64,000 nt of DNA from an uncultured Bacteroidales bacterium (GTDB lineage Bacteria > Bacteroidota > Bacteroidia > Bacteroidales > JAGOPY01): the NCBI GenBank assembly GCA_964447005.1, contig CAYUQP010000015.1:22484-86483 (forward strand), in the 5' to 3' direction. The notes beneath the pieces were generated by a model that worked only from the letters and a program-made list of their open reading frames with translations, was not told the origin of the DNA and did no database searches. Position numbers and translations under genes: made by a program. The stretch's first letter is position 1. Each line of letters opens with the position of its first letter. Of the stretch, positions 6,045 through 64,000 are shown piece after piece.

Positions 6045-6062
6045 AAAATGTTGAATTTTATG

Positions 6063-6070
6063 CAAAAATA
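6063..6070 (-). promoter_or_regulatory. Bacteroidota housekeeping -7 promoter element (TATTTTTG)
   Basis: Exact TAnnTTTG match 18 nt upstream of the 6044 start. Confidence 0.65.
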
Positions 6071-6136
6071 GGCAATAAAAGAGACTGTCCTAAAAGTCCA
6101 GATCCATTCTTGTTAATCATTCTGACGATTTGAATT

Positions 6137-6389
6137 CCGACGGCTTTTGTCGTCGGGTCTGACAACCTCACCCCCTTTACCCCCTGCCCCCTATTGAGGG
6201 TGTAACAGAACTCTTAAATTAATGGAAAAATCTCTTTGCGAAACTTTGCGGTATCTTTGCGAATCTTTGTGTAACAGCCCTTTAGCTATTACGCAAAGCT
6301 ACACAAAGCAGACACAAAGTTACGCAAAGAGACTTCTGTTACACCCTCACGGGGGGTGAGGTTAAGAAACCGGCGGCTTTAGTCGTCGG
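6137..6389. repeat. Nested palindromic element bracketed by two REP-like hairpins
   Basis: REP copies at 6137-6156 and 6370-6389; inverted arms 6164-6175/6352-6363, 6196-6210/6334-6348 (15 bp perfect) and 6231-6240/6323-6332; inner CTTTGCG/CGCAAAG repeats. Confidence 0.85.
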
Positions 6390-6395
6390 CGATAC

Positions 6396-6432
6396 AAAAA
6401 AAAAGGGGCTGCTCAAACTTATGAGCAGCCCC
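6396..6432 (-). terminator. Rho-independent terminator of the scaffold gene
   Basis: 11-bp stem GGGGCTGCTCA/TGAGCAGCCCC, 6-nt loop, U9 tail on the minus strand. Confidence 0.85.
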
Positions 6433-6456
6433 ATATTTTTTATTAAATAAACGCTA

Positions 6457-9400
6457 CTACTGAACGATGAGCTTCTTCACCGCTTTCACACCGTTCTTGC
6501 CGGTAATGTTCACAAAGTACATTCCGGAAGTGAAACTGGAGGCGTTAAGTTGGATCAGTTCATCTGAGCTGACCGTCATTTGCCTGTTGACGATCGTTCG
6601 CCCGGCGATGTCCATGATATTCAGGGTCACCTCACCGGTAAAGATGTCGCTGTTCATTCTCAGGTAAACATTGTCGTTGGCCGGGTTGGGGAACAGGACA
6701 ACTTCATTGCTGTAATCTACAATGTCGGCAATCCCGAAAGTATAAGGCCCACCGGCAAGCTGGAGGTCACCAAGATCACCGGTATTGCTCCAGTTGCTGC
6801 CCGTTCCGTACCACACACTCTGACCTGTGCGTGCAACACCGTCATCGTTGTCATCATTACCAAGGCTGAATCCGAATGATCTGCCTTTTCCGGGGATAAA
6901 TCCGAATGCATCCCATCCTATTCTTAATTCTACATTATAACCGTCACCTGTCATTACAATCTTCGATTCCCAGTTAGTGAACTGCACACCGTCAGCCTTT
7001 AACCACAAAACGGTGTCAACAAACGGGTCAGTGATCATCTGGATCAACTGGGTATCAAAATCGCCGTCATAAGTGCCATCCCTGTCGTGGTTACCATCGA
7101 TATAATACTCAATGGCATCACTGTTCCACGGGTCAGAAAGAGCAAAGATATTGGCGTCGACGACTTTTACGCCAAGGTACCAGTTGTCCTTATCCCATTT
7201 AGATCCCCAGGTGACTGTATTATCAGTTGTTCCTTCAACGACGATTGCCGATGAATATGTTAGATTGAATTCAGACAGGTCACCGTCGATGGTTACCGGG
7301 GTATCGGTATAATCGGAATAAGCCACTCCGTCGTCAGCCGGTTCACTGGTAAAGGTATAAGCGCCGGTCATGCAGTCGAAGCCGACCCTGTAACGACCGG
7401 TAACGGCGGGGATTGCTGCACCGTTAAGTGTGGCAGTTCCTGCCGGGAAATCACCGGCGCCCCACATCACGGCTTCACTCATATCTTTTCTGAAAAACAG
7501 ATCCTGATTTTCAAACATCTCAAAGTTGCCCACATAGTAGGTTGGCTGGTCTGACGGGGTATTCAGCAGGACATCACCCACGTTTGCGTTGTATAAAGTA
7601 ATACAGCCGCAGGATAATGTACCAAACAGCAGGTCACCGAAGGCGGAAGTAACCTGGTAGTTTTGCAGGCCACCGTTCCATGCCATCTGGTAATCGATAC
7701 TTGTTCCGGAATCACTGTCGCTGATGATCAGGTCAAATCCGATCTGATTGCCCATTACTGCTGTTACGCCAAGTTCTGACCAGGGGATGGCCAGTTCCGC
7801 GGTATAGCCATCACCAAGCGGCTTCACGGCAAATCCAAGCTGGATACCTTCGATTGTATCCGGATGGACTACGATGACCACGGGTCCGGCAAAGCGGATA
7901 TGCAGGTCATTTTCATCATAGGCGCCGCCGTTCTTATTTCCATCGATGAAGAGCTCGCCCATTTCCATTGGGGTCAGTGCTCCGTCCATCACATCCAGCC
8001 CGACGAACAAATATTCATCATTATAGGTCACGCCGAAATAAATCAAGTTAGGATCTTCGGTCAGTGTACCGTTGACCACATTGCTGATGTTCTGATCGAT
8101 ATTCCAGTCGGCTTCGTCAAGCTGTCCGTCAACTACCATGTTGAACACTTTGGGAGCGATCACCGCATTCCCCAGGCGGACGAACTTGAAGTCGCCGGAT
8201 TTGCAATTGAAATAGATCTGGTATTTACCACCGGGAACGTCAATCAAAGCGGTCGGGTCCTGCACACCGGTTCCTTCCGGGAAGGTACCGCCCCATACAT
8301 TGGCAAATGTCTGGTCGGCATCCATGCGGAAGAGGAGCTGGGTGCTGGAGGTAAAGTTATATTCCAGGGAGAACTGGCTCGGGTACATCGGGTCGCGGAC
8401 CATCCATACATCCGTTGGAGGATCGCCGGCGCCCCAGCCGTTGAAGTCGCCCACGAGGCCGATCTCACCGCAGAAGTTCGGATTGGCGGTGAAGTTGTAT
8501 TCAAAGGTCGTGGTGTTGAAAGTCACATCATATTTGCCGGCCACCAGCGGGATGTTCGGGCCGTTGGGCGTACCGGTCCCGCTCGGGAAGGTATTGTTAC
8601 CCCAGTTGGCACTCCAATCCTTATTTTCACGGAATTTGACATCCGAATTGGCAAACCATGAACGGGACAGTTTCCAGAGGTTTGGATTCATCGCATCCCT
8701 GTTCATCGGGACATCGCCGTTCCAGCCGTTGAACGCGCCGATCATGCTGATGGCGCCGCTGGCCGCAGTAAAGGTGTAAGCACCGGTGGAGCAGTTAAAG
8801 GTCACCATGTAATCGGTGGTCAGGCCTGATCCATCAACAGGCGCCATGATATTCGGGCCGTCCTGGGTAGCTGTACCGGACGGAAAGTCAGCGCCACCCC
8901 AGTTTACGCCCCAGTCGCTATTCTGGCGGAATTTCATTTCCACGATGCCGTCGGCATTGCCATCAGCGGAAGCATCCAGGGTAAGAATGACCGACCATTC
9001 ATTCGGGCTGGCCATGTTACGGGTCATCCAGTAATCTTCGGCCCATCCGTTGAATTCACCGATCAGGCCAATGTTACCGCAGGTGCTGGTGAAATTGTAA
9101 GCGCCTGTTGAGCAGTTAAACTCGACCTTGTAGGAACCAACCGGCACCGGAACATTCGGGCCGTCCTGGGTAGCTGTCCCTGACGGGAAATCAGCACCGC
9201 CCCAGTTCACTCCCCAGTCGGAATTCTGGCGGAATTTCAATTCTACAATGCCGTCGCTGTTACCGTCGCTGCCGGCCGTGAAAATAACGATAGCGCTCCA
9301 GACATTCGGATCCATGGCGCTGCGGGTCATCCACTCGTCAGCGGCCCAGCCGTTGAATTCGCCGATCATGCCGATCTCACCGCAAGTGGCCTGGAAACTG

Positions 9401-9753
9401 TATGACCCCGTGCTGCAGTTAAAGGATACGAGATAATTTCCATACGGGACCGGGATATTTGGCCCGTCCGGCGTAGCAGTTCCTGAAGGAAAATCAGCTC
9501 CGCCCCAGTTGGTTGCCCAATCGGAATTGGCACGGAATTTCATTTCAATAATACCATCGGCATTGCCATCATCGCCGGCGCCAACCGACAGAATCACCGT
9601 GAAAAGTTCGGGCTGTTCAGGGTTACGGACCATCCAGTAATCGGCGGCCCAGCCGTTAAATTCGCCAATGAGACCGACTCGTCCGCACTGGCCCATCACT
9701 TCAGTTGTAATAAATGAAGCGAGAATCATTAAGAATAGTAAAGATTTTTTCAT
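6457..9753 (-). CDS. T9SS-secreted non-catalytic multi-module protein: five tandem SusE/F-like beta-sandwich modules, a CBM9-like domain, a sixth degenerate module, a second CBM9-like domain and a CTD
   Basis: Repeats of CGx(I/V)GLIGEFNGW...MKFRxNxDWxxNWG...FNC; two VDGxLxExxW/IDGDLSE...YIDGN...GFxLxxxDxD CBM9-like units; FPNP...GMYFV CTD. Confidence 0.85.
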   Translation of the reverse strand: MKKSLLFLMILASFITTEVMGQCGRVGLIGEFNGWAADYWMVRNPEQPELFTVILSVGAGDDGNADGIIEMKFRANSDWATNWGGADFPSGTATPDGPNIPVPYGNYLVSFNCSTGSYSFQATCGEIGMIGEFNGWAADEWMTRSAMDPNVWSAIVIFTAGSDGNSDGIVELKFRQNSDWGVNWGGADFPSGTATQDGPNVPVPVGSYKVEFNCSTGAYNFTSTCGNIGLIGEFNGWAEDYWMTRNMASPNEWSVILTLDASADGNADGIVEMKFRQNSDWGVNWGGADFPSGTATQDGPNIMAPVDGSGLTTDYMVTFNCSTGAYTFTAASGAISMIGAFNGWNGDVPMNRDAMNPNLWKLSRSWFANSDVKFRENKDWSANWGNNTFPSGTGTPNGPNIPLVAGKYDVTFNTTTFEYNFTANPNFCGEIGLVGDFNGWGAGDPPTDVWMVRDPMYPSQFSLEYNFTSSTQLLFRMDADQTFANVWGGTFPEGTGVQDPTALIDVPGGKYQIYFNCKSGDFKFVRLGNAVIAPKVFNMVVDGQLDEADWNIDQNISNVVNGTLTEDPNLIYFGVTYNDEYLFVGLDVMDGALTPMEMGELFIDGNKNGGAYDENDLHIRFAGPVVIVVHPDTIEGIQLGFAVKPLGDGYTAELAIPWSELGVTAVMGNQIGFDLIISDSDSGTSIDYQMAWNGGLQNYQVTSAFGDLLFGTLSCGCITLYNANVGDVLLNTPSDQPTYYVGNFEMFENQDLFFRKDMSEAVMWGAGDFPAGTATLNGAAIPAVTGRYRVGFDCMTGAYTFTSEPADDGVAYSDYTDTPVTIDGDLSEFNLTYSSAIVVEGTTDNTVTWGSKWDKDNWYLGVKVVDANIFALSDPWNSDAIEYYIDGNHDRDGTYDGDFDTQLIQMITDPFVDTVLWLKADGVQFTNWESKIVMTGDGYNVELRIGWDAFGFIPGKGRSFGFSLGNDDNDDGVARTGQSVWYGTGSNWSNTGDLGDLQLAGGPYTFGIADIVDYSNEVVLFPNPANDNVYLRMNSDIFTGEVTLNIMDIAGRTIVNRQMTVSSDELIQLNASSFTSGMYFVNITGKNGVKAVKKLIVQ

Positions 9754-9942
9754 AGAACAGATTATTAATTAATTAATTGATGTTTTGGACTAATTCTTTG
9801 GTGCTAAAATACTATATAATTTCAAATCCGGATCATTAAATTTCATAAAAATTCATAATAGTTAACCGGGAAAAATCAATTAAAAAAATGTTAATTTAGG
9901 CACCTGTTTAGTAAGTTAGTCTATAATCTAATTAAACATCTT

Positions 9943-12900: not shown

Positions 12901-12954
12901 AATACGTATTTCAGCACCCGGACCTTCACCCTGGGCGTGAATGTTGTTTTTTAA
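9943..12954 (+). CDS. susC: SusC/RagA TonB-dependent transporter
   Basis: N-terminal carboxypeptidase-regulatory-like domain, EVVVVGYG, PLIVIDG, IDVLKDASAAAIYGTRAASGVILITTKKG plug motif, C-terminal Phe. Confidence 0.97.
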   Translation: MNNHLRSLLKVGLTGLIMIFCMTGLYAQEKKVSGVVKDAETGETLIGVNVTAATNKTLGTVTDIDGNYSIAVPDTVNALSFSFVGYTTQVIEITSGKIDVKLSPGQQLTEVVVVGYGTQKTREVTSAVSSVKAEDFNRGNISDPIQLIQGKVAGLSIAKPGNDPNQDFTIRLRGLSTFGSNTEPLIVIDGIPGANMKSIDPQDIVSIDVLKDASAAAIYGTRAASGVILITTKKGEFVPGGKTFNVEFGASLTYETIARTVSNLSADDYLSLTEGDSTNHFGYTTDWFDEITSPSLSQTYNLAMSGADENTNYRVAANYREVDGVVMGTGFNQLNGRFNLSQKALKDKLTFDLNLSTTLRNEKYSPSEALQYATIFNPTAPITAEDPFSEEWGGYFQRPAFYFYNPVAIIEQNDLDGKKYNIQGGFKGTYEIIKGLKASAFYSLTSNNDLYGTYYSKNSLWTAHGTGSHEGFARRETKDYFNHMLELTGSYEKTIEKVTFSVLGGYSWQQATNEGFWAFGKGFLSDDFSYNDLGSASGDLPNNQMFDSWKDRTTLIGFYARATANYDNGIFLTANFRRDGSSMFGENAKWGNFPGVSAGVDLARYIEIPYVDRLKVRGGYGVTGNLPPNPYLSKLLYNATNDYFFYNGEYIQAYGPTRNNNPDLQWETKHDLGFGLDFAVLDYRITGSIDYYQSNSEDLILEYDVPVPPYPASRMWLNLGELKNSGLEFNVQYQTLSTREFVWNTELNFAKFFETTLVKITDTLTGNQSTLWFGQLGDPGLIGIQTIKLEEGGPVGQIYAPIYVYTDTAGAMWYETILRDSTGAQIGTDTTKSGVPKDGYSVIGNGLPKFQFGWGNTFSYKGFYLNFFLRGVFGHSLVNVNNAKFGVPKALGIQSGMDIINDYADVTDGPSYSDIHVEKANFVRLDNWSLGYNFKLKKNEYVESLKVYFSGQNLFTITNYSGVDPEVRYEDSADNNNALAPGLDRQNTYFSTRTFTLGVNVVF

Positions 12955-12981
12955 TTGCAAATCAGATAACATCAATCAGCT

Positions 12982-14547
12982 ATGAAAAAGTTCTTAATCA
13001 CCCTGAAAATATTCCTGGCCATCGCACTACTGGTGATGGTCCAACCTTCCTGCACCAAACTGGATGAAGAAGTCTATTCCGACCTGACTGCCGATAATTT
13101 CTTTTCAAATCCGGACAATTTGGTTTATGCCTTTGGTAAAGCATACACTTCATTGTACGACCTGGTCGGGCATAAATACGGTATGCAGGGCAGCGAATGC
13201 GGCACCGACATGCTGATCGTTCCCCAGCGGGGAGGCGACTGGCTCGACGGCGGTGAATGGCACCGCTTTCACCGTCATACCTGGACCTCGCAGGATAATT
13301 ATTTCAACCACTGGTGGACCAATATCTACGCCAACGGGGTCAGTACAGTAAACCGGCTCATCTATGAGTTCGAAAGCCTTGAAGGAGTTGATGTTACGCC
13401 GGCAGTTTCAGAACTGCGGGCCCTGCGCGCTCTCTACTACTACTGGCTGGTCGATAAATTCGGCAACGTGCCGATCGTGGATGACTTCAACGGCCCTGCC
13501 AAGCCGTTCACTTCCTCACGACAGGAAGTGCACGACTGGGTTGTAAGTGAGTTGCTCGAATCCATGCCATACTTATCCAGGGAAACCGGGCTGCCGATGT
13601 ACGGCAGGATCAATTACTACACAGCTCAGATGATCCTTGCCAAAATGTACCTCAATGCAGCGGTTTTCACCGGTACGGCACAATGGGAAAAAGCCCTGGC
13701 AGCCTGCGATACGATCATCAATTCCGGATTGTACAACCTTAACGCCAATTACTTTGACAATTATATCGCCGATGCGTCCGGTTCCAGGGAGGTGATCCTG
13801 GCCGTTCCTTTTGATGAATTACTGGCAGACGGATTCGAAATCCACCTCTTCTCGCTGCATTATGGATTGCAGCAGAAATACGGCTTCACGGCCGCTACAT
13901 GGAACGGTATCTGCTTCCAGGAAAGCTTCTTCAACCTGTTCGGCGCGGAAGATCTCCGCCGGAACGGTATGCTTTTCGGGCCGCAATTCTTCGACGACGG
14001 GACCCCGGTAACCGACCCGAGCTGGGAAACCTTCAGTCCCACCCAACCTTTTGACCCGGACGGAGCCCAGGTCAACCTCACACCGTTCGTTAACCAGCTC
14101 GAACCCAACTGCCTCAGGCAATGCGGCGCGCGTGTGGCCAAATTCCCCTTCATCGCCGCCAGTCCAAGGTATATCAGCAACGATTTCCCGATCTTCCGCT
14201 ATGCCGATGTGCTGCTTATGAAAGCCGAATGCCTGCTGCGTCTTGGACAGGCCGGTGATGCATTGCCGATTGTGAACGAAGTCAGGGCCCGCGCCAGCGC
14301 AGGTGATCTTGATGAGGTCACCTTCCTTGACCTGCTTGAAGAGCGCGGCCGCGAGCTATTTTGCGAAGGGCACCGCCGGTCGGACATGATCCGCTTTGCA
14401 GACGAGATCCCGGCTGATAATCCGCTGAATTATTTCGCTCCCAGGTGGGAAAAGGAAAATGTCACGGAGCCTTTCCGCAGCCTGTGGCCTATCCCGCAGA
14501 GCAAACTGGATGTGAACGAGAATCTGGAACAGAATACGGGGTACTAA
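12982..14547 (+). CDS. susD: SusD/RagB glycan-binding lipoprotein
   Basis: Lipobox QPSC, LRALYYYWLVDKFGNVP, FRYADVLLMKAE, ERGRELFCEGHRRSDMIRF, terminal QNTGY. Confidence 0.96.
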   Translation: MKKFLITLKIFLAIALLVMVQPSCTKLDEEVYSDLTADNFFSNPDNLVYAFGKAYTSLYDLVGHKYGMQGSECGTDMLIVPQRGGDWLDGGEWHRFHRHTWTSQDNYFNHWWTNIYANGVSTVNRLIYEFESLEGVDVTPAVSELRALRALYYYWLVDKFGNVPIVDDFNGPAKPFTSSRQEVHDWVVSELLESMPYLSRETGLPMYGRINYYTAQMILAKMYLNAAVFTGTAQWEKALAACDTIINSGLYNLNANYFDNYIADASGSREVILAVPFDELLADGFEIHLFSLHYGLQQKYGFTAATWNGICFQESFFNLFGAEDLRRNGMLFGPQFFDDGTPVTDPSWETFSPTQPFDPDGAQVNLTPFVNQLEPNCLRQCGARVAKFPFIAASPRYISNDFPIFRYADVLLMKAECLLRLGQAGDALPIVNEVRARASAGDLDEVTFLDLLEERGRELFCEGHRRSDMIRFADEIPADNPLNYFAPRWEKENVTEPFRSLWPIPQSKLDVNENLEQNTGY

Positions 14548-14575
14548 ATGGGTAACCATTCTGTGGTTTCAAACT

Positions 14576-14683
14576 CCAACGACTAAAGCCGTTGGTTACT
14601 ATAGCCTTACAAATAAAACCGACGACTTCAGCCGTCGGTTTTTATTTTGCAACTAACTTGGAACCAACGGCTTTAGTCGTTGG
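14576..14683. repeat. Cluster of three REP-like palindromes; the central copy forms a bidirectional terminator
   Basis: Inverted copies at 14576-14595 and 14664-14683 flank aaataaaaccgacg-acttcagc-cgtcggtttttattt (14611-14647) between convergent genes. Confidence 0.85.
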
Positions 14684-14703
14684 AGTTCACAACCAAAGCG
14701 AGG

Positions 14704-16107
14704 TTATTTCACATATACCAGGTATTCCCAAGGTTTCAGCCTCACCGCATCACCCTTCTTAAACGTCATCTCTTCTTCCGAAAACCATTCTTTGTAGTTG
14801 CCAGCAAAGGCATCCCCTTTCAATTTGAATTCCTTTACCTCACCCGTCAGGTTTGCCAGCACAAAAACCCTGTCGCCTTCTTTATCACGGGTGAAAGCAA
14901 ATACAGCGGTGTCGGCAGTCGTATTGATCCGCTTCAGCTTTCCTCCCCAGTTCCCGTTCCAGAGCGGCTGGTAGGAATGTTTCAAAGCGAAAAGCTTCTG
15001 GTAGAAGGGCTCGAGGCGGTAATCCCCCCAGATGATGGTGTCTTTGTCAAAAAACCTCAGGCGTTCGTTGAAGGCAGATTCCTGGCCGCTGTAAACCAGT
15101 GGCATGCCAGGCAGGGTCGCCGTCAGCACGGCCATGCAGACCGAGCCGGCGCCCATCCGCTCGAATTCCGTCCCCTGCCAGGAGTTCTCGTCATGGTTCG
15201 AGGTAAATGCCATCCGGTAAGCATCGGTAGGATAAAGGGTGTCCTGTTTCCGGAAATAGTCTTCCAGCGCGTTGGCGTTTTTCTCTCCTTTGGCAATGGA
15301 ATTCATGATATGATGCAACTCCCAGGCGTACGACATGTCGAAGGCCCGGAAATGGTGCGGTGGCTCTTCGGCTTCTGCCAGCATGAAAACCGGCTTGATC
15401 CGGTCCAGTTCGGCCCGGACCTGCTCCCAGAAATCCAGTGGCACCATGCCGGCGACATCACAGCGGTAACCATCGATATCGGCCTCCGTGACCCAATATT
15501 TAAACGCATCGATCATGGCCGCACGCATCCCGGGGTCATCATAATTAAGATCTGCGACGTCGCTCCAGTCATAAGGAGAAACAAAATTACCCAGTGAATC
15601 CTTCGTATACCATTCCGGGTGTTCCGTGATCCAGGCATTGTCCCACGAACTGTGGTTGGCCACCCAGTCGATGATCACCTTCATCCCCTGGGCATGTGCG
15701 GTCCCGACAAGTTTTTTGAAGTCATCAAGGGTGCCGAACTCAGGATTGACTCCTTTATAATCCTTCACGGAATAATAGCTTCCCAGGCTGCCTTTGCGGT
15801 TCTTCTCCCCGATCGGATGGATCGGCATCAGCCACAGGATATCCACACCCATTTTTTTCAGGCGGGGAATATGCTCAAGGAAGGCGTTAAAAGTCCCTTC
15901 GGGAGTGAATTGCCTGATGTTCACCTCGTAAATGTTCGCGTTGCGGCTCCATTGCGGATGAACGACAAAGCTCTGCGGCGGTTCTTTCGTCGCCGGGGTT
16001 TCCTTTTTGGGGGCATTGCAGGCTACAACCAACAGGATCAGGATCACCGGCAGGAGCAGCAGTAGCTCAGATAAGGTTCGGGTAATTGTCATTTTATTGA
16101 TATTCAT
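14704..16107 (-). CDS. GH13 alpha-amylase-family lipoprotein
   Basis: Lipobox LVVAC; YEVNIRQFTPEGT, DWVANH, GYRCDVAG, LAEAE, SNHDEN. Confidence 0.92.
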   Translation of the reverse strand: MNINKMTITRTLSELLLLLPVILILLVVACNAPKKETPATKEPPQSFVVHPQWSRNANIYEVNIRQFTPEGTFNAFLEHIPRLKKMGVDILWLMPIHPIGEKNRKGSLGSYYSVKDYKGVNPEFGTLDDFKKLVGTAHAQGMKVIIDWVANHSSWDNAWITEHPEWYTKDSLGNFVSPYDWSDVADLNYDDPGMRAAMIDAFKYWVTEADIDGYRCDVAGMVPLDFWEQVRAELDRIKPVFMLAEAEEPPHHFRAFDMSYAWELHHIMNSIAKGEKNANALEDYFRKQDTLYPTDAYRMAFTSNHDENSWQGTEFERMGAGSVCMAVLTATLPGMPLVYSGQESAFNERLRFFDKDTIIWGDYRLEPFYQKLFALKHSYQPLWNGNWGGKLKRINTTADTAVFAFTRDKEGDRVFVLANLTGEVKEFKLKGDAFAGNYKEWFSEEEMTFKKGDAVRLKPWEYLVYVK

Positions 16108-16119
16108 TTATTTATTTAT

Positions 16120-18498
16120 TTAGTTATTGTATAATATTTCAAACGACCAGGGTTGAAGATCTATCGAAAGCTCCCCGTCTTTAATTGCGAAATCATTCCC
16201 GAATCCGGATTTCATTCCCTCCGCATCCAGCCAGCCGGGCAAACTCACCGTCAGCTTTACCGGTTCATTGCGCTTGTTGAACACAACTATCACGGAATTG
16301 TCAAAGTAATTCCTGGCATAGGCATAAATCTTGTCACTGACCTGCAACGTCATGAAATTCCCGTAGATCAGGGCCAGGTTTTCTTGCCTGATCCTGGCCA
16401 GCTTCGTTGCTTTCTCCTTTGTCGTGAGCTCCAGGGAGGTAAGGTCCGCGAACTTCATCTGCCGCCGCGAATCAGGGTCATTGCCGCCGGGGATTCCGAG
16501 CTCATCACCGTAATAGATCACCGGCAGCCCCGGAATGGTCATGATAAAGGCCGTCAGCATCGAGAGCTTCTGGTATCCGACCGGATCACCGACGCCGATA
16601 TCTCTTTTCCACCCGGCCATCTTTGCATTTTCACCAAACTTCAGGTCTCCGCCGGCGTAAGAGATAAACCGGCCCCTGTCCTGATTGCCGGTGATGTATC
16701 CCATCCGGTTCGTATTTCCGTAAAAGTCAAAACTGGTCTGCAGCGTGTTGTCGAGATTGGTGAACGGATCCTCTTCGCGTGCAAACACACCGATGGCTGC
16801 ATCGTAAACATTAAAATCGAATTGCCCGTCGAGCATTCCTGCACCCACGTAACCGGATATGAGCTCAGGCCCGCCGTAGGTTTCCCCGATCTGGTATATA
16901 TCACGCCCTTCACCCGCAACCACCTTCTCCTTGATCTTTTTTGTCAGCGTTCTCCAGAAGATCTCCGGGATGTGCTTGGTGGCGTCATGCCTGAAACCAT
17001 CCAGGTTGTATTCCCGCAACCACCAAACTGCCGAGTCGGTCAGCATTTCCGTCACTTCAACCTGCTGCAGGTCCAGCGTGGGCAGAAAATCATCGAACCA
17101 GGTGGTGAGCCGGTGCTCGTCCCACTTCTCGGTATTTTTCGTTCCGTCCGGCAGGTAAAGACTGGTGGTCCAGTCAGGATGCTCAATATAATAAGGATGC
17201 AGTTCATGGACATGATGTGCCACGAAATCCAGCAGGACGTTCAGCCCGTTGTCATGGGCGGTCTTCACCATTTCTTTCAACTCTGCCGATGTACCAAAGC
17301 GCGGGTCAACCTGCGTGAAAGAGATCGGCCAGTAGCCGTGGTAGGCCGAGAATTTGGTCTTCGGGTCATTCCATTGGCCATACGCGCCTTTCGGGTTCAG
17401 CACGACAGGGGAAATCCATATTGTATTCACGCCCAGGTCATTAAAATATCCTTCCCTGATCTTTTGCGTAACGCCCGCAATATCGCCGCCAAAAAAATCG
17501 GCCTTCGGCAGCACCAGCGCCGGATCGCCAATCGGCTCGTCATTGCCGGGATTACCGTTGTGAAAACGGTCCACGAAAACATTGTAGATGATCTGTGCTT
17601 CCATATCGGTACGCATGACTTTCGCGGGATCCGAAACCACGCTGCCGTTGTTAAGCGGTATCATGAGATCATTCGATACACCGGCATCGTTGTATGAATA
17701 AATCCTGATGAACGAACGCTCCATCGATGTTGCCTCTGCAGGAATTGAGATTTCAAGCTTATTTTCTTCTAATTCAAGATATGACTCATCCAACCGGATA
17801 TTTTGCCAGAAGACGAAAAACGCTTCCGGTTTGGTTGTCCATCTTATTGAGAGGCTGTTTCTACCCTCTTCGATATCATCGGTATAAAGAAATGGCAGCA
17901 GCGATTTTTCCACCAGGCCCACTTTCAGGACCGAGTTGAATGCCCCGTTGTTATTATCCACCGAATCCGGATTGGCAGGATCAACTCTCCATTTCCCATC
18001 AGTGACAAGCTGGTACTGATACCTGCCCGGATTCAGCGGAAGGACAACCGACCAGTTTCCATTTTCCAGTTTCAATTCCGTCCTCGACGGGGTCCAGCCG
18101 TTGAATTCGCCGGCAAGCTGCACACTGCTGTATTCCTTACCGGCAGGATCAAAGGTATAAATGAAGTCCGTTTTCCTGCTTTTCATGACCAGGACCGATT
18201 GCCAACCGCCATTGCTCCATACTTTCATTTCAGAAAGCGGCTCAATGATCCCGGAAGGTTTAAAACTTGCAGTAGCTTTATCCGGCGACAACACAGCTTT
18301 CAACCTCCCGAGGTAAACTGAATCGACGATCTCCGGATTTGGCACGAAATCTGTTATAATCAGTTCCGTTTGGTCTTTGTCAAGACGCAGGGGAAGTGCA
18401 AGGCCGGGTATAAAATGATGGGAAGGCAGGGGGGACGGGGACTTGCTGCAGGCAGCCAGGATCAGGAACAACCATAACAGGGGAACGATTCGCTTCAT
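16120..18498 (-). CDS. GH13 lipoprotein with CBM48/AMPK-type glycogen-binding domain
   Basis: Lipobox LAAC; VQLAGEFNGW...YQYQLVTDGKWRVDP; DFVAHH, GFRHDATKH, IGETY, GNQD; start taken at MKRIV. Confidence 0.9.
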   Translation of the reverse strand: MKRIVPLLWLFLILAACSKSPSPLPSHHFIPGLALPLRLDKDQTELIITDFVPNPEIVDSVYLGRLKAVLSPDKATASFKPSGIIEPLSEMKVWSNGGWQSVLVMKSRKTDFIYTFDPAGKEYSSVQLAGEFNGWTPSRTELKLENGNWSVVLPLNPGRYQYQLVTDGKWRVDPANPDSVDNNNGAFNSVLKVGLVEKSLLPFLYTDDIEEGRNSLSIRWTTKPEAFFVFWQNIRLDESYLELEENKLEISIPAEATSMERSFIRIYSYNDAGVSNDLMIPLNNGSVVSDPAKVMRTDMEAQIIYNVFVDRFHNGNPGNDEPIGDPALVLPKADFFGGDIAGVTQKIREGYFNDLGVNTIWISPVVLNPKGAYGQWNDPKTKFSAYHGYWPISFTQVDPRFGTSAELKEMVKTAHDNGLNVLLDFVAHHVHELHPYYIEHPDWTTSLYLPDGTKNTEKWDEHRLTTWFDDFLPTLDLQQVEVTEMLTDSAVWWLREYNLDGFRHDATKHIPEIFWRTLTKKIKEKVVAGEGRDIYQIGETYGGPELISGYVGAGMLDGQFDFNVYDAAIGVFAREEDPFTNLDNTLQTSFDFYGNTNRMGYITGNQDRGRFISYAGGDLKFGENAKMAGWKRDIGVGDPVGYQKLSMLTAFIMTIPGLPVIYYGDELGIPGGNDPDSRRQMKFADLTSLELTTKEKATKLARIRQENLALIYGNFMTLQVSDKIYAYARNYFDNSVIVVFNKRNEPVKLTVSLPGWLDAEGMKSGFGNDFAIKDGELSIDLQPWSFEILYNN

Positions 18499-18578
18499 GG
18501 GAATTTGTGTTTGGTTATGCAAATATCGGTATTAAAGGGACTCCCCGGGGAGGTTGAATCCGTTATAAGAAAAATTTG

Positions 18579-18586
18579 TAATTTTG
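18579..18586 (+). promoter_or_regulatory. -7 promoter element (TAATTTTG)
   Basis: Exact consensus match, with TTG about 22 nt upstream. Confidence 0.65.
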
Positions 18587-18641
18587 CTGCGTCTTACTAC
18601 CACATTGTTAGTAATCAACATTAAAACCTGATCGATCGAGC

Positions 18642-20135
18642 ATGAAAATTGAAAATTCGATGGCAACTGTATTAAATGATAACCCGGTGATCTACGAGAT
18701 CAATACATTTATCTGGTTAAGGGAACTGGGAGAAAAATACCGCAAAAAGATCACGCTGGCCAATGTGCCTGTCAAAGAATTCGATGAGCTGGCGGCAATG
18801 GGATTCGATGCAATCTGGCTGATGGGTGTCTGGAAACGAAGCCATGCGGGCCTGGAAATTGCAAAAAAGCATGAAATTATCATGAAAGAGCTTCAGGAAG
18901 CACTGCCCGACCTGCAGGAAGAAGATATTGCCGGTTCACCGTATTGTATCAAAGAGTACACGGTGGATCCGTCAATCGGCGGAGATAAGGGCCTGGCCAG
19001 GACCCGGAAAGAAATGGCCGCGCGCGGCATGAAACTGATCCTGGATTTTGTGCCGAACCACGTGGCCCCCGATCATCCGTGGACCAAATCGAACCCCGGC
19101 TTTTTTATCACCGGAACGGAACAAGAAATGTCGTCCCGTAACGAAGACTTTTATAAATCCGGGAAAAATATTTACGCAAAGGCCCGTGACCCTTTTTACC
19201 CGCCTTGGCCTGATGTTTTGCAGTTAAATGTATTTGACAATGGCTTGCGTGAAAAGCTGCTCGAAACGCTGAAAACGATCGCCGCTGCCAGCGATGGCAT
19301 CCGTTGTGATATGGCCATGCTGGTGATGAACGATATTTTCGGAAAGAACTGGGGTGAAAAAGCAGGACAGGCACCTGCGGTGGATTTCTGGAATTTCATG
19401 ATCCCCGCGGTGAAAAAGGAGTTCCCCGGTTTCATGTTCATCGCGGAGTCATACTGGGATACGGAACCGGCGCTGATTGCCCAGGGCTTTGACTATTGTT
19501 ACGATAAAAGATATTATGATTACCTGAAGGAAGGAGCGCCCCACATGTTACAGCACCTGTCGGAAATGGACAAATACCGGGAAAAGCTTCTCCGGTTTAT
19601 TGAAAACCACGATGAACCGAGGGCGGCAGGGCTTTTTAACTTCATGAAGAACAGGGCTTACGCCCTGGCGTCCCTCACCCTTCCGGGGCCACGACTAATC
19701 CATGACGGGCAAATCACAGGACGTACCGTAAAAGTGCCCGTTTTCCTGTCAAGAAGACAGGATGAGCCGGAGCAGGCGGAAATCAGCAAGTTTTACCTGC
19801 AATTGCTGAAATTGCTGAGGTTTGATGCGGTGCGCAAAGGGAAATGGGCCCTGTGCAACGTTTCAGGATGGATTGACAACCAGACATGCCGGAATCTACT
19901 GACCTTTGAGTGGGTCTGCGAACACGAAACCCTTATGATCGTAGTCAACCTGAGTGATTCCTCCTCCCAGGCATATGTGAAATCAGGCTTTCAATACAGG
20001 CCTGGCAGAACTTATCAACTGTTTGATGTTACTTCAGGGGAACTCTATCTCCGCGATGGCGAAGAAATGAACGATCCGGGGCTTTATATCGTTTTATCCG
20101 GTTGGGGGGTGCATGCATTTAGCATTGAGCATTAG
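18642..20135 (+). CDS. Cytoplasmic GH13 alpha-amylase-family protein
   Basis: IYEINT, GSPYCI, DFVPNH, GIRCDMAM, IAESYW, ENHDE; no signal peptide. Confidence 0.9.
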   Translation: MKIENSMATVLNDNPVIYEINTFIWLRELGEKYRKKITLANVPVKEFDELAAMGFDAIWLMGVWKRSHAGLEIAKKHEIIMKELQEALPDLQEEDIAGSPYCIKEYTVDPSIGGDKGLARTRKEMAARGMKLILDFVPNHVAPDHPWTKSNPGFFITGTEQEMSSRNEDFYKSGKNIYAKARDPFYPPWPDVLQLNVFDNGLREKLLETLKTIAAASDGIRCDMAMLVMNDIFGKNWGEKAGQAPAVDFWNFMIPAVKKEFPGFMFIAESYWDTEPALIAQGFDYCYDKRYYDYLKEGAPHMLQHLSEMDKYREKLLRFIENHDEPRAAGLFNFMKNRAYALASLTLPGPRLIHDGQITGRTVKVPVFLSRRQDEPEQAEISKFYLQLLKLLRFDAVRKGKWALCNVSGWIDNQTCRNLLTFEWVCEHETLMIVVNLSDSSSQAYVKSGFQYRPGRTYQLFDVTSGELYLRDGEEMNDPGLYIVLSGWGVHAFSIEH

Positions 20136-58974: not shown

Positions 58975-59046
58975 AATCTTTAATTTTTAAATGTTAATGA
59001 ATGGTTTAATTTCACAAAATTAGTCATTAAGAGCGACTTCTGCTTA

Positions 59047-60132
59047 TTAATCCGGAATTTTCGAAAATATACCCGGTTGTCCGGCAACTTTTTTTAAAAA
59101 TTTTTCTATCAGCCTGGGAACCGGGTAGTTATGGATATCCATAAATGGGATCCGTATGTAATCATTGTTAAAATATTCATCGGAATGAATGATTAAAAAC
59201 CTGGCAAAGAGTTCACGGTGGGAAAGCAGGTACCTGGGAAAATTGATCGATTGTTCAATTGTTAAAGGATATTTCCCGGATATTTTTTTCCAGCTTTTCA
59301 GCTCCAGGAATTGTTCATCATTAGTTTCAGTCTCAGTTTCTATCAGCGGAAAATCATAAAGGTTCTTCCAGATATCATTTCCCTTTCGCTTATTGATCCA
59401 GACTGATAGATCAGGATTGTTTCGGGAATATATAATAAGGTAGTGGAAATATCTTTTTGCCACTCTTACCGGTTTCTTTACTAACGGTAGTTCGCTGGTA
59501 AGCCTTTTCCTGCATGCAACACATTTTTCCGACAGCGGGCATCGTTCGCAAAGTGGCCGGGCCGGTTTGCACACCAGGGCACCGAGTTCCATGACCGCCT
59601 GGTTGAAAATCCCGGGCCGTTCCGGGTCCAGTTGATGCTCCAGGAACTCCCTGACCTGTTTTTTGCCGGGGGCGTAACTGACCGGCTCCTTAATGCCTTT
59701 GTACCGGGCCACAACGCGCATAACATTCCCGTCGATCACCGGATGGGGCTGGTTAAAGGCAATCGAAGCAATTGCACCGGCAGAATAATCACCAACGCCT
59801 TTCAGGCGCCTGATATCATCATATTTCACCGGGAAAACAGAATCATGGTCGTGAACGATACTTTTAGCCGCCTCGTGCAGGTTCCTGGCCCTGGTATAAT
59901 ACCCCAGCCCCTGCCAAAGTTTCATCACTTCCTCTTCCTGCGCCATGGCAAGGGAATCTACATCAGGAAACCGTTCCAGGAACCGCTGGTAATAATCAAG
60001 TCCTTGATCGACGCGGGTTTGCTGCAGGATCACTTCGGAAATCCAGATACGGTAAGGATCGGAAGTATGCCGCCAGGGGAGATCACGTTTGTTTTGGCTA
60101 TACCAGTCTAATATAAGGTGACGAAAACCCAT
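59047..60132 (-). CDS. mutY: A/G-specific adenine glycosylase
   Basis: WISEVILQQT, LGYYTRARNL, HhH motif GVGDYSA, 4Fe-4S motif CKPARPLCERCPLSEKC. Confidence 0.97.
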   Translation of the reverse strand: MGFRHLILDWYSQNKRDLPWRHTSDPYRIWISEVILQQTRVDQGLDYYQRFLERFPDVDSLAMAQEEEVMKLWQGLGYYTRARNLHEAAKSIVHDHDSVFPVKYDDIRRLKGVGDYSAGAIASIAFNQPHPVIDGNVMRVVARYKGIKEPVSYAPGKKQVREFLEHQLDPERPGIFNQAVMELGALVCKPARPLCERCPLSEKCVACRKRLTSELPLVKKPVRVAKRYFHYLIIYSRNNPDLSVWINKRKGNDIWKNLYDFPLIETETETNDEQFLELKSWKKISGKYPLTIEQSINFPRYLLSHRELFARFLIIHSDEYFNNDYIRIPFMDIHNYPVPRLIEKFLKKVAGQPGIFSKIPD

Positions 60133-60263
60133 CCGTTTTGAAACAAATTATTATTGAGCTAATTAGAACAATTTTTTTTTGATTGTGTTGAATCGGCAAA
60201 TGAAAATAAATTATCTTTGCCGTCTTTAAAAAAATAAGTTAAAAATCTAAAATTTATTTAGTT

Positions 60264-60554
60264 ATGACCAAAGCAGAAATCGTTGCTGAAATAGCAAACA
60301 AAACAGGGATTGAGAAAGTTGCAGTTCAGGCCAGTGTTGAAGCTTTCATGGAAGCCGTGAAGAACTCACTTGCTAACGGGGAAAATGTTTACCTGAGGGG
60401 ATTCGGCAGCTTTACAATCAAGAAGAGGGCTGAAAAGACCGGTCGGAATATTTCAAGGAACACCACGATCATTATCCCGGCACACAACATCCCGGCGTTC
60501 AAACCGGCCAAGACCTTTGTCAGTGAGGTGAAAGGTAACGTTAAAGTAAAGTAA
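60264..60554 (+). CDS. hup: DNA-binding protein HU
   Basis: MTKAEIV, VYLRGFGSF, GRNIS, PAFKP; promoter TATCTTTG at 60212-60219. Confidence 0.95.
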   Translation: MTKAEIVAEIANKTGIEKVAVQASVEAFMEAVKNSLANGENVYLRGFGSFTIKKRAEKTGRNISRNTTIIIPAHNIPAFKPAKTFVSEVKGNVKVK

Positions 60555-60573
60555 TCCATTAAAACTGCTTAAA

Positions 60574-60663
60574 ATGCCCAGCGGGAAGAAAAGAAAAAGA
60601 CACAAGATGGCTACACACAAACGCAAAAAGCGTTTGAGAAAGAACAGGCACAAGAAGAAATAG
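60574..60663 (+). CDS. 29-aa basic ribosomal protein bS22 (below the ORF-track cutoff)
   Basis: MPSGKKRKRHKMATHKRKKRLRKNRHKKK, located between hup and rng. Confidence 0.85.
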   Translation: MPSGKKRKRHKMATHKRKKRLRKNRHKKK

Positions 60664-60742
60664 GCCACAAACCCATTTTGCCCTATGTTCTTGATACCAT
60701 CCGGCTTTAAGCTCCCAGGATGTTATATCACTAAACAACTTC

Positions 60743-62353
60743 ATGGTGGATAGGGAATTGATTATCGACGCGAAGTCAGGAGAAGTTGAAATAGCTTTAC
60801 TTGAAGACAAGGTACTTGTCGAACTTCAAAAAGAAAAAAGCAATCAAGGCTTTCAGGTTGGCGACATTTATCTCGGCAAGGTTCATAAGATCATGCCCGG
60901 GCTAAATGCCGCTTTTGTTGACGTGGGCTATGAGAAAGATGCATTTTTGCACTACCTCGACCTCGGCCCGCAAATCCGGTCGCTCAGCAAGTTCATCAAG
61001 CTGGCAATGGCCGGCAAAGGTCAGAAAATACCCCTGGAGCAGTTCATTGCCGAAGAGGATATTGAGAAAACCGGGAAAATCTCCCAGGTCCTGAAAGTTA
61101 ACCAGCCGGTACTGGTCCAGATAGAGAAAGAGCCCATCTCTTCAAAAGGCCCCAGGATCTCCTGCGAAATCTCATTCGCGGGCAGGTTCCTGGTGCTGGT
61201 CCCCTTCTCCAACCGGATCAGCGTATCCACGCGGATCAAATCGGTGGAAGAAAGGAACCGGCTGAAAAGGCTTATCACCAGTATCAAGCCAAAAAATTTC
61301 GGGGTCATTATCCGGACGGTCGCCGAAGGAAAAATGGTCGCGGAACTTGACGCGGACCTGAAAAACCTTGTGGCGAAATGGCACGAACTGGTGACCAAGC
61401 TCAACATGGCCAAACCCTCTTTTAAGGCCCACAGTGAACTGGACCGCACTTCAGTCATTTTGCGTGACATTCTGAATGAATCGTTTAACTCCATTACAGT
61501 TAACGACCATTCATTGTTTGAAGAGATTCGGAATTATATCGGGAAGATCGCGCCGAAAAAGGTGGACATTGTCAAATTTTACCGCGGTCGGGTCCCCATC
61601 TACGAGTTTTTTGGTGTTGATAAACAGATCAAGAATGCGTTCGGGAAGACGGTCAGCATCAAATCCGGCATTTACCTGATCGTGGAACATACCGAAGCCA
61701 TGCATGTCATCGACGTGAACAGCGGCCACCGGTCGCGAAAGGAAAATTCCCAGGAAGAGAATGCCCTGGCGGTCAATATGGAAGCAGCCATTGAGATTGC
61801 ACGGCAGTTGAGGCTCCGCGATATGGGCGGCATAATTGTCATCGATTTCATCGACATGCATGAATCGGGTCACCGCCGCCAGCTTTTCCAAAAGCTCAAG
61901 GACGAAATGGCAAAGGACCATGCAAAGCATACCATCCTCCCACCGAGTAAATTTGGTCTTGTTCAGGTTACACGCCAGCGGGTAAGGCCGGAAAACGAGA
62001 TCGAAGTCCTGGAAAATTGTCCTGCCTGTAAAGGCTCCGGCCAGATCAGGTCCAGCTCCCTGCTCCTCGATGAGATCGAAGCGAACATCCGGCAGCTAAT
62101 TACCGAACAGAACGAATCCTACATCAGGATCACTCTTCATCCTTTTATCTATGCCTACCTTACCAAAGGATTCCCGTCCACACAGATGAAATGGTACATG
62201 AAGTACAAGAAATGGATCCGCCTGGAACCGGTCACATCACATCATTTCCTTGAATATCACTTCTTTAACAGGATCGAGGACGAAATTAAGCTGAACGGCG
62301 AACTGCCCAAAGGTGCGCTGCTCGACAGCCAGCCGGTGGAACCGGAGGAGTAG
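60743..62353 (+). CDS. rng: Ribonuclease E/G family
   Basis: S1 domain GDIYLGKV...AAFVDVG, IDVNSG, DMGGIIVIDFIDM, CPAC motif. Confidence 0.96.
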   Translation: MVDRELIIDAKSGEVEIALLEDKVLVELQKEKSNQGFQVGDIYLGKVHKIMPGLNAAFVDVGYEKDAFLHYLDLGPQIRSLSKFIKLAMAGKGQKIPLEQFIAEEDIEKTGKISQVLKVNQPVLVQIEKEPISSKGPRISCEISFAGRFLVLVPFSNRISVSTRIKSVEERNRLKRLITSIKPKNFGVIIRTVAEGKMVAELDADLKNLVAKWHELVTKLNMAKPSFKAHSELDRTSVILRDILNESFNSITVNDHSLFEEIRNYIGKIAPKKVDIVKFYRGRVPIYEFFGVDKQIKNAFGKTVSIKSGIYLIVEHTEAMHVIDVNSGHRSRKENSQEENALAVNMEAAIEIARQLRLRDMGGIIVIDFIDMHESGHRRQLFQKLKDEMAKDHAKHTILPPSKFGLVQVTRQRVRPENEIEVLENCPACKGSGQIRSSSLLLDEIEANIRQLITEQNESYIRITLHPFIYAYLTKGFPSTQMKWYMKYKKWIRLEPVTSHHFLEYHFFNRIEDEIKLNGELPKGALLDSQPVEPEE

Positions 62354-62476
62354 CGAGAGTCCTTAGTCGATAGTCTTGAGTCTTTAGTCTGAAGTTTTTA
62401 ATTTTTATTTTCAGTTTTAGTTGTCTTTCTGTTAGGGATTGCTTTACTTTGCTGCACTAACCAAACTAAAACTGCT

Positions 62477-63625
62477 ATGAAAAAACTATTTCTGGCTGTG
62501 GTGATGACCACAGCATTCGGTCTCAGCCTTTTATCCCAGGTTCCTTCTGTAAGTATTAAGATCGACACCGCCGAACGGTTCCGCTTTGAAGGAAACCGAC
62601 TGAATTTCCTGAACCCAGGCCGAAACGTACTGATCGGCGACAGTACAGGGTTTAAAATGGATCCTTCTGCTTCCGGTAATGTTTACATCGGGGATTTAAC
62701 AGGACAATGGGATACAATGGGATTTTACAATACATTTATCGGCAGCCAGGCAGGCTATTCCAACAGGACCGGTATCCGAAACACCTTTCTGGGTTTTGGG
62801 GCCGGACAAGGTAATTCGTCGGGGGCTCGGAACACTTTTGTCGGGATGTGGGCTGGTGCTACAAACTTCGATGGATCACATAACACTTACATCGGCAGAA
62901 ATACTGCGTTTTACAACCAAAACGGTTACGGAAATGTATTTATCGGGGATAATGCAGGAGTTTTTGAATTAGGTTCCAATATGCTGTATATCGCCAACAC
63001 AAACACAACCACACCGCTAATCTATGGTGAATTCGACAATGCTTTCCTTCGGTTCAACGCCTACAACACTGAGTCAACCGGTGATTTTATGTCCTACGGC
63101 AAAGTCAGGGCCAACGACGTGTTCAGCCATAACGGAACGCCGGGCATCTCTGACACGGCAAATTATGTGACCAACATCGATTTCCAGAATGGCATGCTAA
63201 AATACAGGACCGTAGTCTATTCAGGTGGTATTGCGACTTACAACAGCGACGAATCGGGCTGGGTGACCCAGGTCGGCGATCCGATTTTCCTCTGCGGCCA
63301 GATATCCCTCATTGGTGAATTCAGCGGTTGGTCGCTTGATCATTTAATGACAAGAGACATCAATAATCCTGATCTCTGGACAACCACCATGTACCTGACT
63401 GCAGAAAACGATTTCATGCCCCAGGATGGCCTCGTTGAGATGAAATTCCGCGAAAACCAGGACTGGTCAGTCAACTGGGGATCCGATCTGTTTCCTTCCG
63501 GAACAGCTATCCCCCTTGGCCCCAACATTCCGGTACCACTCAACATAAACTTCACGACGACCATTTACGAAATCGCGTTCAACTGCAAAACCGGGGAGTT
63601 TACGTTTACGGATGTGTCGCAGTAG
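62477..63625 (+). CDS. Secreted protein with ~7 NTFxG..AG 17-residue beta-roll repeats fused to a C-terminal SusE/F-like module
   Basis: Signal peptide; repeats such as NTFIGSQAG and NTFLGFGAG; aa 273-382 match the modules of 6457..9753. Confidence 0.85.
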   Translation: MKKLFLAVVMTTAFGLSLLSQVPSVSIKIDTAERFRFEGNRLNFLNPGRNVLIGDSTGFKMDPSASGNVYIGDLTGQWDTMGFYNTFIGSQAGYSNRTGIRNTFLGFGAGQGNSSGARNTFVGMWAGATNFDGSHNTYIGRNTAFYNQNGYGNVFIGDNAGVFELGSNMLYIANTNTTTPLIYGEFDNAFLRFNAYNTESTGDFMSYGKVRANDVFSHNGTPGISDTANYVTNIDFQNGMLKYRTVVYSGGIATYNSDESGWVTQVGDPIFLCGQISLIGEFSGWSLDHLMTRDINNPDLWTTTMYLTAENDFMPQDGLVEMKFRENQDWSVNWGSDLFPSGTAIPLGPNIPVPLNINFTTTIYEIAFNCKTGEFTFTDVSQ

Positions 63626-63712
63626 TTCCAGAGTTCCAGAGTTCCTAATATCTAATTTCCATTTTCGGCTTGGTCTTGAGTTGGGATTTTTGGTTTTGAG
63701 TTTGGGTTCAGC
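63626..63712. repeat. Short tandem repeats after the stop (AGTTCCAG, TTTGAGT/TTTGGGT)
   Basis: Read directly from the sequence. Confidence 0.6.
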
Positions 63713-63868
63713 GTTGAATGCGCTCTGATATAATCTTATATCTCTATAAATGTTATCAAAATTCATTATAAATTACTGATATTTATTAACATATCGTATT
63801 ACCCCCCCTGTTTTTCCGATTAATTCCTGTTTTGAGCCGCTCCTTTTTTTCATTCAAATGATCATGCC

Positions 63869-64000
63869 ATGAAAACATTAATCCAAAACCTTAGCGCTTT
63901 CTTCCTGGTCCTTGCAGTTTTTTCGGATGCAATTAGCCAGGAAATAGAAATTGATCTTACCTTTACAGGTGACACGGTAATTAATCCTTTTGAGAACATT
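63869..64000 (+). CDS. 5' end of a secreted protein running off the window
   Basis: MKTLIQNLSAFFLVLAVFSDAISQEIE..., signal-peptide-like and open to the window end. Confidence 0.6.
   Translation, partial: MKTLIQNLSAFFLVLAVFSDAISQEIEIDLTFTGDTVINPFENI

Follow-up and report, generated by a model that had tools for sequence, protein, structure and literature searches.

Gene, Protein and Neighbourhood

The window discussed here is the whole 64,000-nucleotide stretch from positions 22,484 to 86,483 of contig CAYUQP010000015.1 (assembly GCA_964447005.1), which derives from an uncultured Bacteroidales bacterium; the source habitat of the organism is sludge, wastewater, biofilm and digester. Near the right-hand end of the window lies a gene for a predicted secreted, fibre-like protein (hereafter the fibre), in which a stalk of repeats resembling those of phage tail fibres is fused to a C-terminal carbohydrate-binding module of the X25 / SusE-SusF type (Table 1). 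The architecture is a previously undescribed combination of two known types of part and not a new domain family. The open reading frame (ORF) is located 53 kb from a SusC/SusD/GH13 starch locus at 3225-20135. This locus houses a 1,098-amino acid (aa) scaffold of the type IX secretion system (T9SS), encoded at 6457-9753 on the minus strand, which carries six modules homologous to that of the fibre as well as two CBM9 domains and a Por_Secre_tail. The initial annotation had described a tail-fibre-like repeat stalk fused to the glycan-binding module of this scaffold, and the homology of both parts bears this description out.

The signal peptide is composed of MKK, a hydrophobic core and a cleavage site at which Ser is followed by Gln, with Ala followed by Gln at the same column in the orthologues. 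A Gln at +1 corresponds to the Bacteroidetes Q-rule for substrates of signal peptidase I (PMC5837995). The conserved β segment behind the signal peptide is possibly the attachment end of the fibre. In the neck, the conserved columns (alignment A5) are L150, I152, N154, P160-I162 and F166. The small β domain that follows is invariant among the orthologues at G223, T227, Y243, T245, G251, S257, S260, W262, V266 and G267, and no match to aa 196-271 was found in Pfam, the PDB or phages.

Searches of Pfam and NCBIfam returned no match of any family to the protein at E<=1, and a sequence search of the PDB likewise found nothing. The same Pfam and NCBIfam searches detected the T9SS C-terminal domain (CTD) in three other proteins of the window. 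In the fibre, neither a T9SS sorting domain of type A (PF18962/TIGR04183) nor one of type B (PF13585) was found at this threshold, and the SusE N-terminal domain PF14292 had no Pfam match. The chain terminates four residues past the last strand of the X25 module in the AlphaFold model of that module. The only cysteines of the protein, as read from the sequence, are C273 and C370. As there is no cysteine before residue 273, there is no lipobox cysteine, and the absence of both a CTD and a lipobox, as first annotated, is upheld, as are the other observations of the initial annotation on the sequence itself.

The genes upstream of the fibre gene in the window are those of the related contexts described below, and the T9SS, SusC/D and GldD genes mark the window as of Bacteroidota type. 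Downstream, at 63626-64000, there is an AT-rich spacer, followed by a new signal-peptide ORF from 63870 (MKTLIQNLSAFFLVLAVF...) that is cut by the end of the window; trpS is not the next gene. A scan for sigma-70 promoters and terminators was uninformative, which is expected in Bacteroidota.

Table 1. Features of the fibre gene and its comparison partner, in window coordinates
Feature	Position	Strand	Basis and remarks
Whole gene, predicted secreted fibre-like protein with C-terminal X25 module	62477..63625	+	382 codons and stop, ATG start; ~20 orthologues of full architecture at 45-88% identity
Predicted Sec / signal peptidase I signal peptide, aa 1-20 (MKKLFLAVVMTTAFGLSLLS), Gln at +1	62477..62536	+	Read from sequence; orthologues have A before Q in the same column; no Cys in peptide
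N-terminal β segment, conserved, aa 21-49 (QVPSVSIKIDTAERFRFEGNRLNFLNPGR)	62537..62623	+	Kept in orthologues and in X25-less paralogues; predicted local distance difference test (pLDDT) 56-64
Predicted β-solenoid stalk, seven 17-residue repeats NxFxGxxAGxxNxxGxx, aa 50-169	62624..62983	+	Period 17; pLDDT 94-98, one stacked strand per repeat
Neck or cap, conserved, aa 170-195 (LYIANTNTTTPLIYGEFDNAFLRFNA)	62984..63061	+	Most conserved columns of the stalk family; directly precedes S74 chaperone in relatives
Linker and small three-strand β domain, aa 196-271	63062..63289	+	Specific to non-S74 subfamily; strands aa 227-235, 240-249, 252-256
X25 / SusE-SusF-type carbohydrate-binding β-sandwich, aa 272-382, flanked by C273/C370	63290..63622	+	pLDDT 88-96; Foldseek; 49-52% identity to scaffold modules
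Six homologous modules of the T9SS scaffold (comparison partner, outside the gene): 1-5 at 8173-9690, 6 at 7345-7614	7345..9690	-	BLASTP and module hidden Markov model (HMM)

The Repeat Stalk

The repeats of the stalk follow the pattern N[TV][FY]xGxxAGxxNxxGxx and start at aa 50, 68, 85, 102, 119, 136 and 153, with a period of 17, in agreement with the roughly seven NTFxG..AG repeats that had been annotated. The stalk and neck are 43% identical over 190 aa (aa 20-201) to P0048, a ‘tail fiber domain-containing protein’ of the Bacteroidota (E 3e-32). In P0048, the neck GSNxLYIxNSxTxxPLIYGEFDN leads straight into a Peptidase_S74 chaperone. Peptidase_S74 (PF13884) follows the same repeats in 49 of the 120 listed homologues, in line with the initial statement that such repeats usually precede an S74 chaperone, and PF26696 ‘PTL_trimer’ is found in nine of the 120; by Pfam, PF13884 is absent from the fibre itself. 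The S74 part of the relatives matches solved structures of phage tail-fibre and MyRF chaperones. For their repeat part, no solved structure was matched.

In phages, the repeats match the tail spike family phrog_4636 of PHROG (E 2e-11) and uncharacterised proteins in BFVD. A tblastn search returned 20 phage records, described as tail fibre, appendage or virion structural protein, with 35-49% identity to the repeats. The C-terminal half of the protein, formed by the middle domain and the X25 module, had no match in 50,697 phage records. These alignments show the stalk to be tail-fibre-like and homologous to the repeats of phage tail fibres, and it probably comes from the same stock as their stalks.

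An AlphaFold model was obtained for a single chain from an alignment of 105 sequences, with a mean pLDDT of 85.6 and a predicted template modelling score of 0.75. In the model, each repeat contributes one strand of three residues at a spacing of 17 residues, and this regular spacing suggests that the stalk folds as a single-chain β-solenoid. A Foldseek comparison of the full model with the PDB gave nothing at E<=0.001, the best match having E>3, and no autotransporter head was returned with either the full model or that of the module. No mention of PF26696 ‘PTL_trimer’ was found in the literature, nor anything relevant to the Bacteroidota tail-fibre-domain family. With its many members, its confident model and its lack of a solved structure, the stalk family is a reasonable target for structure determination.

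The C-Terminal Module

The module at the C-terminus of the fibre is closest to module 3 of the scaffold. By BLASTP, aa 273-381 align with scaffold aa 225-332 at 52% identity with one gap (E 8e-32), inclusive of the TT segment, as had been noted initially for modules 1-3 with module 3 as the best partner. Modules 2 and 1 are 49% identical to it and need a gap of 6-7 residues at the TT segment. Identity is 45% with module 4 and ~30% with modules 5 and 6. A module HMM applied to the six-frame translation of the window found exactly seven copies, i.e. the six of the scaffold and the one of the fibre, and a six-frame search found no paralogue of the stalk in the window. Scaffold module 6 stands apart from the other five, beside the CBM9 domains; it has lost the GEFNGW motif, which reads LYNANVG, and it may be degenerate or changed in function.

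A profile of the seven modules was searched against 1.84 billion representative proteins and matched 1,506 clusters at E<=0.001 (627 at E<=1e-10), most of them with 3-10 copies. In a Pfam scan of 54 of these relatives, SusF_SusE (PF16411) was found in 32 at E<=1e-5, the SusE N-terminal domain in seven and X25_BaPul_like in three. A T9SS CTD was present in 37 and the catalytic domain of alpha-amylase in six, while others carried CBM9, CBM20 or CBM48. The occurrence of the module in so many architectures (with CTD, alpha-amylase, CBM9, CBM20 or the SusE N-terminal domain) indicates a mobile domain, as proposed at first.

In a study of Sas20 and Sca5, X25 modules are described as β-sandwiches of ~120 residues, which SusE, SusF and some GH13 pullulanases carry in tandem (PMC9112005). 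When the model of the module was compared with the PDB by Foldseek, the best matches were SusF (4fe9, E 9.8e-5, probability 1.00) and the X25-2 module of Sca5 (7rpy, E 1.2e-4). Lower matches were SusE with maltoheptaose or alpha-cyclodextrin (4fch/4fem, E 0.02), followed by the CBM48 of AMPK. For the seven modules of the window, Pfam gives nothing but a sub-threshold AMPK1_CBM match, never SusF_SusE or X25. Modules that are 40-42% identical to that of the fibre (P0044 and P0047) do pass the SusF_SusE model, P0044 scoring 89.8 bits where the cut-off is 27.5. The module belongs to a divergent branch of the named X25 / SusE-SusF family of starch-binding modules (PF16411, PF22058). Membership follows from the transitivity of homology through such relatives and not from a direct profile match. 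The suggestion that the domain might be unnamed is therefore dropped.

There are two hallmarks of this branch. One is a pair of cysteines, which lie in a CG motif on the first strand and an FNC motif on the last; in the fibre, a C273-C370 disulfide probably locks the module, judging by sequence. The other is an optional insertion of 6-7 residues ahead of the penultimate strand. Three tryptophans show little or no variation across an alignment of 29 modules: W14, W59 and W63 in module numbering, corresponding to W285, W330 and W334 in the whole protein. The structure of Sca5 X25-2 has been solved with maltotriose, with W661 as the binding Trp (PMC9112005). In the sequence alignment, the Trp of the DW motif falls on the stretch of Sca5 7rpy that holds W661 by our own count of the numbering. 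The second Trp of Sca5, W620, is aligned with Met or Leu in this branch. Current Pfam models miss the whole CG...FNC branch of X25/SusE-F modules, and the starch-binding capacity of Bacteroidota from sludge and digesters is consequently under-annotated.

Conservation, Synteny and Age of the Fusion

The whole architecture is common to ~20 proteins with 45-88% identity and from five to more than 14 repeats. All of these are unnamed or ‘hypothetical protein’, as are the names of their clusters. In each of five related contexts, the fibre gene is located between rng (RNase G) and trpS, within a conserved block that reads CorA - M14 peptidase-CTD - GldD - CNNM - SSB - MutY - HU - RNase G - fibre - TrpRS - HflX - Lnt. 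No phage genes were found within 10 kb of the fibre gene in the five contexts.

In a neighbour-joining tree, the modules of the fibres form one cluster and are not nested among the scaffold modules of the window. Bootstrap support for strict monophyly is weak (24/100), owing to the shortness of the domain, and the case for an old fusion therefore draws mainly on orthology and synteny. Every fibre module has the TT insertion, as do many scaffold modules from other organisms, so that it does not indicate scaffold module 3 as the donor. The initial annotation had ascribed the gene to domain shuffling. The fusion of two parts stands; a recent shuffle from module 3 of the local scaffold is rejected in view of orthology down to ~45% identity, the rng-trpS synteny, the separate cluster of the fibre modules and the spread of the TT insertion. 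The fusion is old and conserved.

The context L001 (AMWB02154135.1, GCA_000315315.2) holds an orthologue of 61% identity in full synteny on a 42-kb contig, from an assembly with contig numbering above 150,000. In L004, at 3924-9726, two extra T9SS cargo genes, for a Peptidase_C1 protein of 1,390 aa and a protein of 516 aa, lie between rng and trpS. In effect, different secreted proteins can occupy the rng-trpS interval, which acts as a variable slot. In L006, at 8001-9359 (also L007 1543-2901), there is a fibre orthologue of the 452-aa type with an in-frame TGA in place of the TGG of a conserved Trp (NPDxW). In this copy, the first Cys of the module is changed to Arg (SRG for SCG) and NWG to NWC, and an intact second fibre gene adjoins it. 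From its sequence, the first copy looks like a decaying gene.

With regard to the scaffold, one relative carries an orthologue of the X25-CBM9-CTD type (L006 16051-17110) at 7 kb downstream of its fibre genes, past trpS, hflX and lnt. A metagenome-assembled genome labelled Chlorobiota (JAADFW010000045.1; L005 5890-9246) encodes a scaffold of 1,119 aa with the same 5+1 layout of modules as that of the window. A single-protein scan of genome contigs returned one locus, which was a scaffold orthologue and not a fibre.

Exchange of Tips

Several kinds of end are found on the same stalk and middle domain: nothing beyond the middle domain, Fib_succ_major directly (P0018), X25, or X25 together with Fib_succ_major. 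P0125, P0032 and a protein of 772 aa in L006 represent the last kind. In more distant relatives, the end is formed by S74 or by a small CWRVTV domain. Tip swapping is typical of receptor-binding fibres. The second, tandem fibre in the rng-trpS slot of L006 (9570-11888; also P0125, P0014 and P0032) has two stalk blocks, an X25 module and Fib_succ_major (TIGR02145). In P0018 (L008 5303-7172), the stalk is seemingly joined straight to Fib_succ_major with no X25 module.

Proposed Function and Alternatives

The favoured reading, held with slightly better than even confidence, is that of an extracytoplasmic fibre that binds alpha-glucan by means of an X25 tip on a solenoid stalk. Sec would export the protein and signal peptidase I would cleave it behind S20, so that the mature chain begins with Gln (+1). 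From its N-terminus, this chain would comprise the β segment for attachment, a stalk of seven coils with its neck, the small β domain and, at the distal C-terminus, the X25 module, which the rigid stalk would keep at a distance from the point of attachment. If the fibre is a homotrimer, as is expected of its S74 relatives, three modules would be brought together, with avidity for starch, glycogen or malto-oligosaccharide helices. In this role it would be a complement to the scaffold of the starch locus, which has several X25 modules and is secreted by the T9SS. An alpha-glucan is the probable ligand because of the ~50% identity to scaffold modules of the SusC/SusD/GH13 locus and because of the structural neighbours of the module. 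The reading is further supported by the SusF_SusE, X25 and alpha-amylase domains of the module's relatives, the conserved DW Trp, the confidently modelled stalk with its phage and S74 homologues, the intact orthologues between rng and trpS, the exchange of tips and the distance of only 7 kb between fibre genes and scaffold in one relative.

A number of points weigh against this reading. At E<=1, PF16411 and PF22058 match neither the fibre nor the scaffold modules, and the fibre falls below every Pfam threshold. Sequence-profile matches of the module in the PDB are marginal (E 0.016), the best being Sca5 7rpy. Starch is not the ligand of every X25/SusE-like module: one homologue in the family matches BT3088, which binds dextran, and a ligand other than starch may thus be bound. 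The gene is outside the starch locus, and there are no carbohydrate genes near the fibre in four of the five related contexts. The confident monomeric solenoid suggests that a trimer is not needed for folding in silico, which neither proves nor excludes a trimer. No RNA support for expression was found: no metatranscriptome containing the gene was found, and four RNA runs compared with positions 59000-64000 of the window gave only matches of 30-70 bases, from the rng and HU genes of other organisms. Finally, no route is known that brings a protein without a CTD, a lipobox and a barrel to the surface of Bacteroidota.

The choice of ligand bears on the first alternative, in which the same architecture serves to bind a different glucan or else a surface polysaccharide or exopolysaccharide of bacteria, such as dextran or the exopolysaccharides of floc neighbours, as a cell-cell or floc adhesin in sludge. 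The presence of BT3088 within the SusE/F-like family and the position of the gene outside the starch locus speak for it. So do the clustering of fibre modules apart from scaffold modules, the addition or substitution of Fib_succ_major in sister fibres, the habitat in sludge, biofilm and digester, and the binding of other bacteria's surface glycans by the mosaic adhesive trimer (MAT) fibres of Bdellovibrio. It is nonetheless considered unlikely in view of the 50% identity of the module to those of the GH13/SusCD starch-locus scaffold, the conserved aromatics that it has in common with them, and the best structural matches, which are all starch binders. The lack of a known surface route means that the protein could also stay in the periplasm. 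It would then be confined to the periplasm or the inner leaflet, as a monomeric solenoid spacer with an X25 module for imported malto-oligosaccharides or periplasmic glucans. A Sec/signal peptidase I signal that is accompanied by no CTD, lipobox or barrel is consistent with this, as are the predicted folding of the stalk as a self-sufficient single chain and the housekeeping character of the gene neighbourhood. However, the other members of the stalk family are phage fibres and surface adhesins, and it is hard to see what a rigid fibre whose lectin-like tips can be swapped would do in the periplasm. The periplasmic handling of maltodextrin in Sus systems is not known to involve X25 modules. 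A periplasmic role is accordingly regarded as decidedly improbable.

Were the gene what is left of a receptor-binding protein from a prophage or tailocin, with a host module picked up by chance and no cellular function, this would account for the matches of the stalk to phage tail-fibre and tail-spike families and for the one decaying orthologue (L006/L007). Phage fibres lack a Sec signal peptide, such as the one present here, and there are no phage genes nearby in the five contexts. In addition, the frames are intact down to ~45% identity at the rng-trpS position, and the C-terminal half of the protein is unmatched in the phage records. This explanation is scarcely credible and is rejected.

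Glycan capture in Bacteroidota is thought to use lipoproteins (SusD/E/F) and, in environmental lineages, T9SS-secreted proteins with multiple carbohydrate-binding modules. If the alpha-glucan-binding fibre is on the surface, a phage-like fibre that carries a starch module and lacks both sorting signals would be a third mode of display, and the protein raises a concrete question of export. A wider reading, which is put forward as speculative and fairly unlikely, is that there exists in Bacteroidota a family of cell-encoded adhesins with swappable tips, derived from phage fibres and parallel to the MAT fibres. In this proposal, the protein would be a trimeric ‘grappling’ fibre that catches starch granules with three tip modules of the SusE/F type. 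It would reach the surface by an undescribed route that requires neither a T9SS CTD nor lipidation, and its 17-residue solenoid would be a fold without a solved representative.

Comparison with Known Systems

The initial annotation had likened the stalk to the β-roll of YadA. YadA heads share with it only a Gly/Asn-rich repeat with an N-x-hydrophobic-x-G core. The period is 17 as opposed to 14, there is no membrane anchor and the polarity is reversed, with the binding tip at the C-terminus. Pfam finds no Hep_Hag, YadA head or anchor and Foldseek no autotransporter. The YadA-like assignment is rejected. It has been noted that JGI labels some of the S74 relatives ‘trimeric autotransporter adhesin’.

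The S74 phage fibres and tailspikes (K1F endosialidase and T5 pb1), together with the Bacteroidota tail fiber domain proteins, have homologous repeats and neck. The fibre differs from them in that a small β domain and an X25 module occupy the place of S74, in its predicted Sec signal and in the absence of a phage context.

As regards the module, SusE and SusF of Bacteroides thetaiotaomicron (PF16411; 4fe9, 4fch, 4fem) share the β-sandwich of ~100 residues, and both they and, putatively, the fibre are associated with a SusC/SusD/GH13 starch system. As lipoproteins encoded inside the locus, SusE and SusF combine an N-terminal SusE domain with two or three modules in tandem. The fibre, in contrast, has a single C-terminal module on a stalk, lacks a lipobox and a SusE N-terminal domain, is encoded at a distance from the locus and is below the Pfam threshold. 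The same module fold is found in Sca5 and Sas20 (7rpy) of Ruminococcus bromii, where X25 modules on a non-enzymatic scaffold serve to capture starch (PMC9112005). The amylosome of R. bromii is a Gram-positive cohesin-dockerin assembly in which tandem pairs of X25 modules form one extended site, and it has no fibre stalk.

The MAT fibres of Bdellovibrio bacteriovorus comprise S74 and non-S74 subfamilies, have a signal peptide, are located on the surface of the predator and bind prey glycans (PMC10769870). Members of the MAT superfamily have a conserved, β-rich domain of ~130 aa after the signal peptide and a trimeric stalk of β-helix or β-prism (PMC10769870). The fibre described here belongs to another phylum and has a predicted 17-residue solenoid in place of intertwined β-prisms, and the role of MAT fibres is the recognition of prey as opposed to the capture of nutrients. 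In Foldseek, the MAT protein Bd2133 (8ond) was reached with E ~8.5, and there was no sequence match to any solved MAT fragment. As no link in sequence or fold was found, the relationship is one of analogy and not of membership, and the likeness is architectural only. In both systems, a chromosomal gene encodes a protein with a signal peptide and a phage-like stalk, in S74 and non-S74 versions, that ends in exchangeable C-terminal tips.

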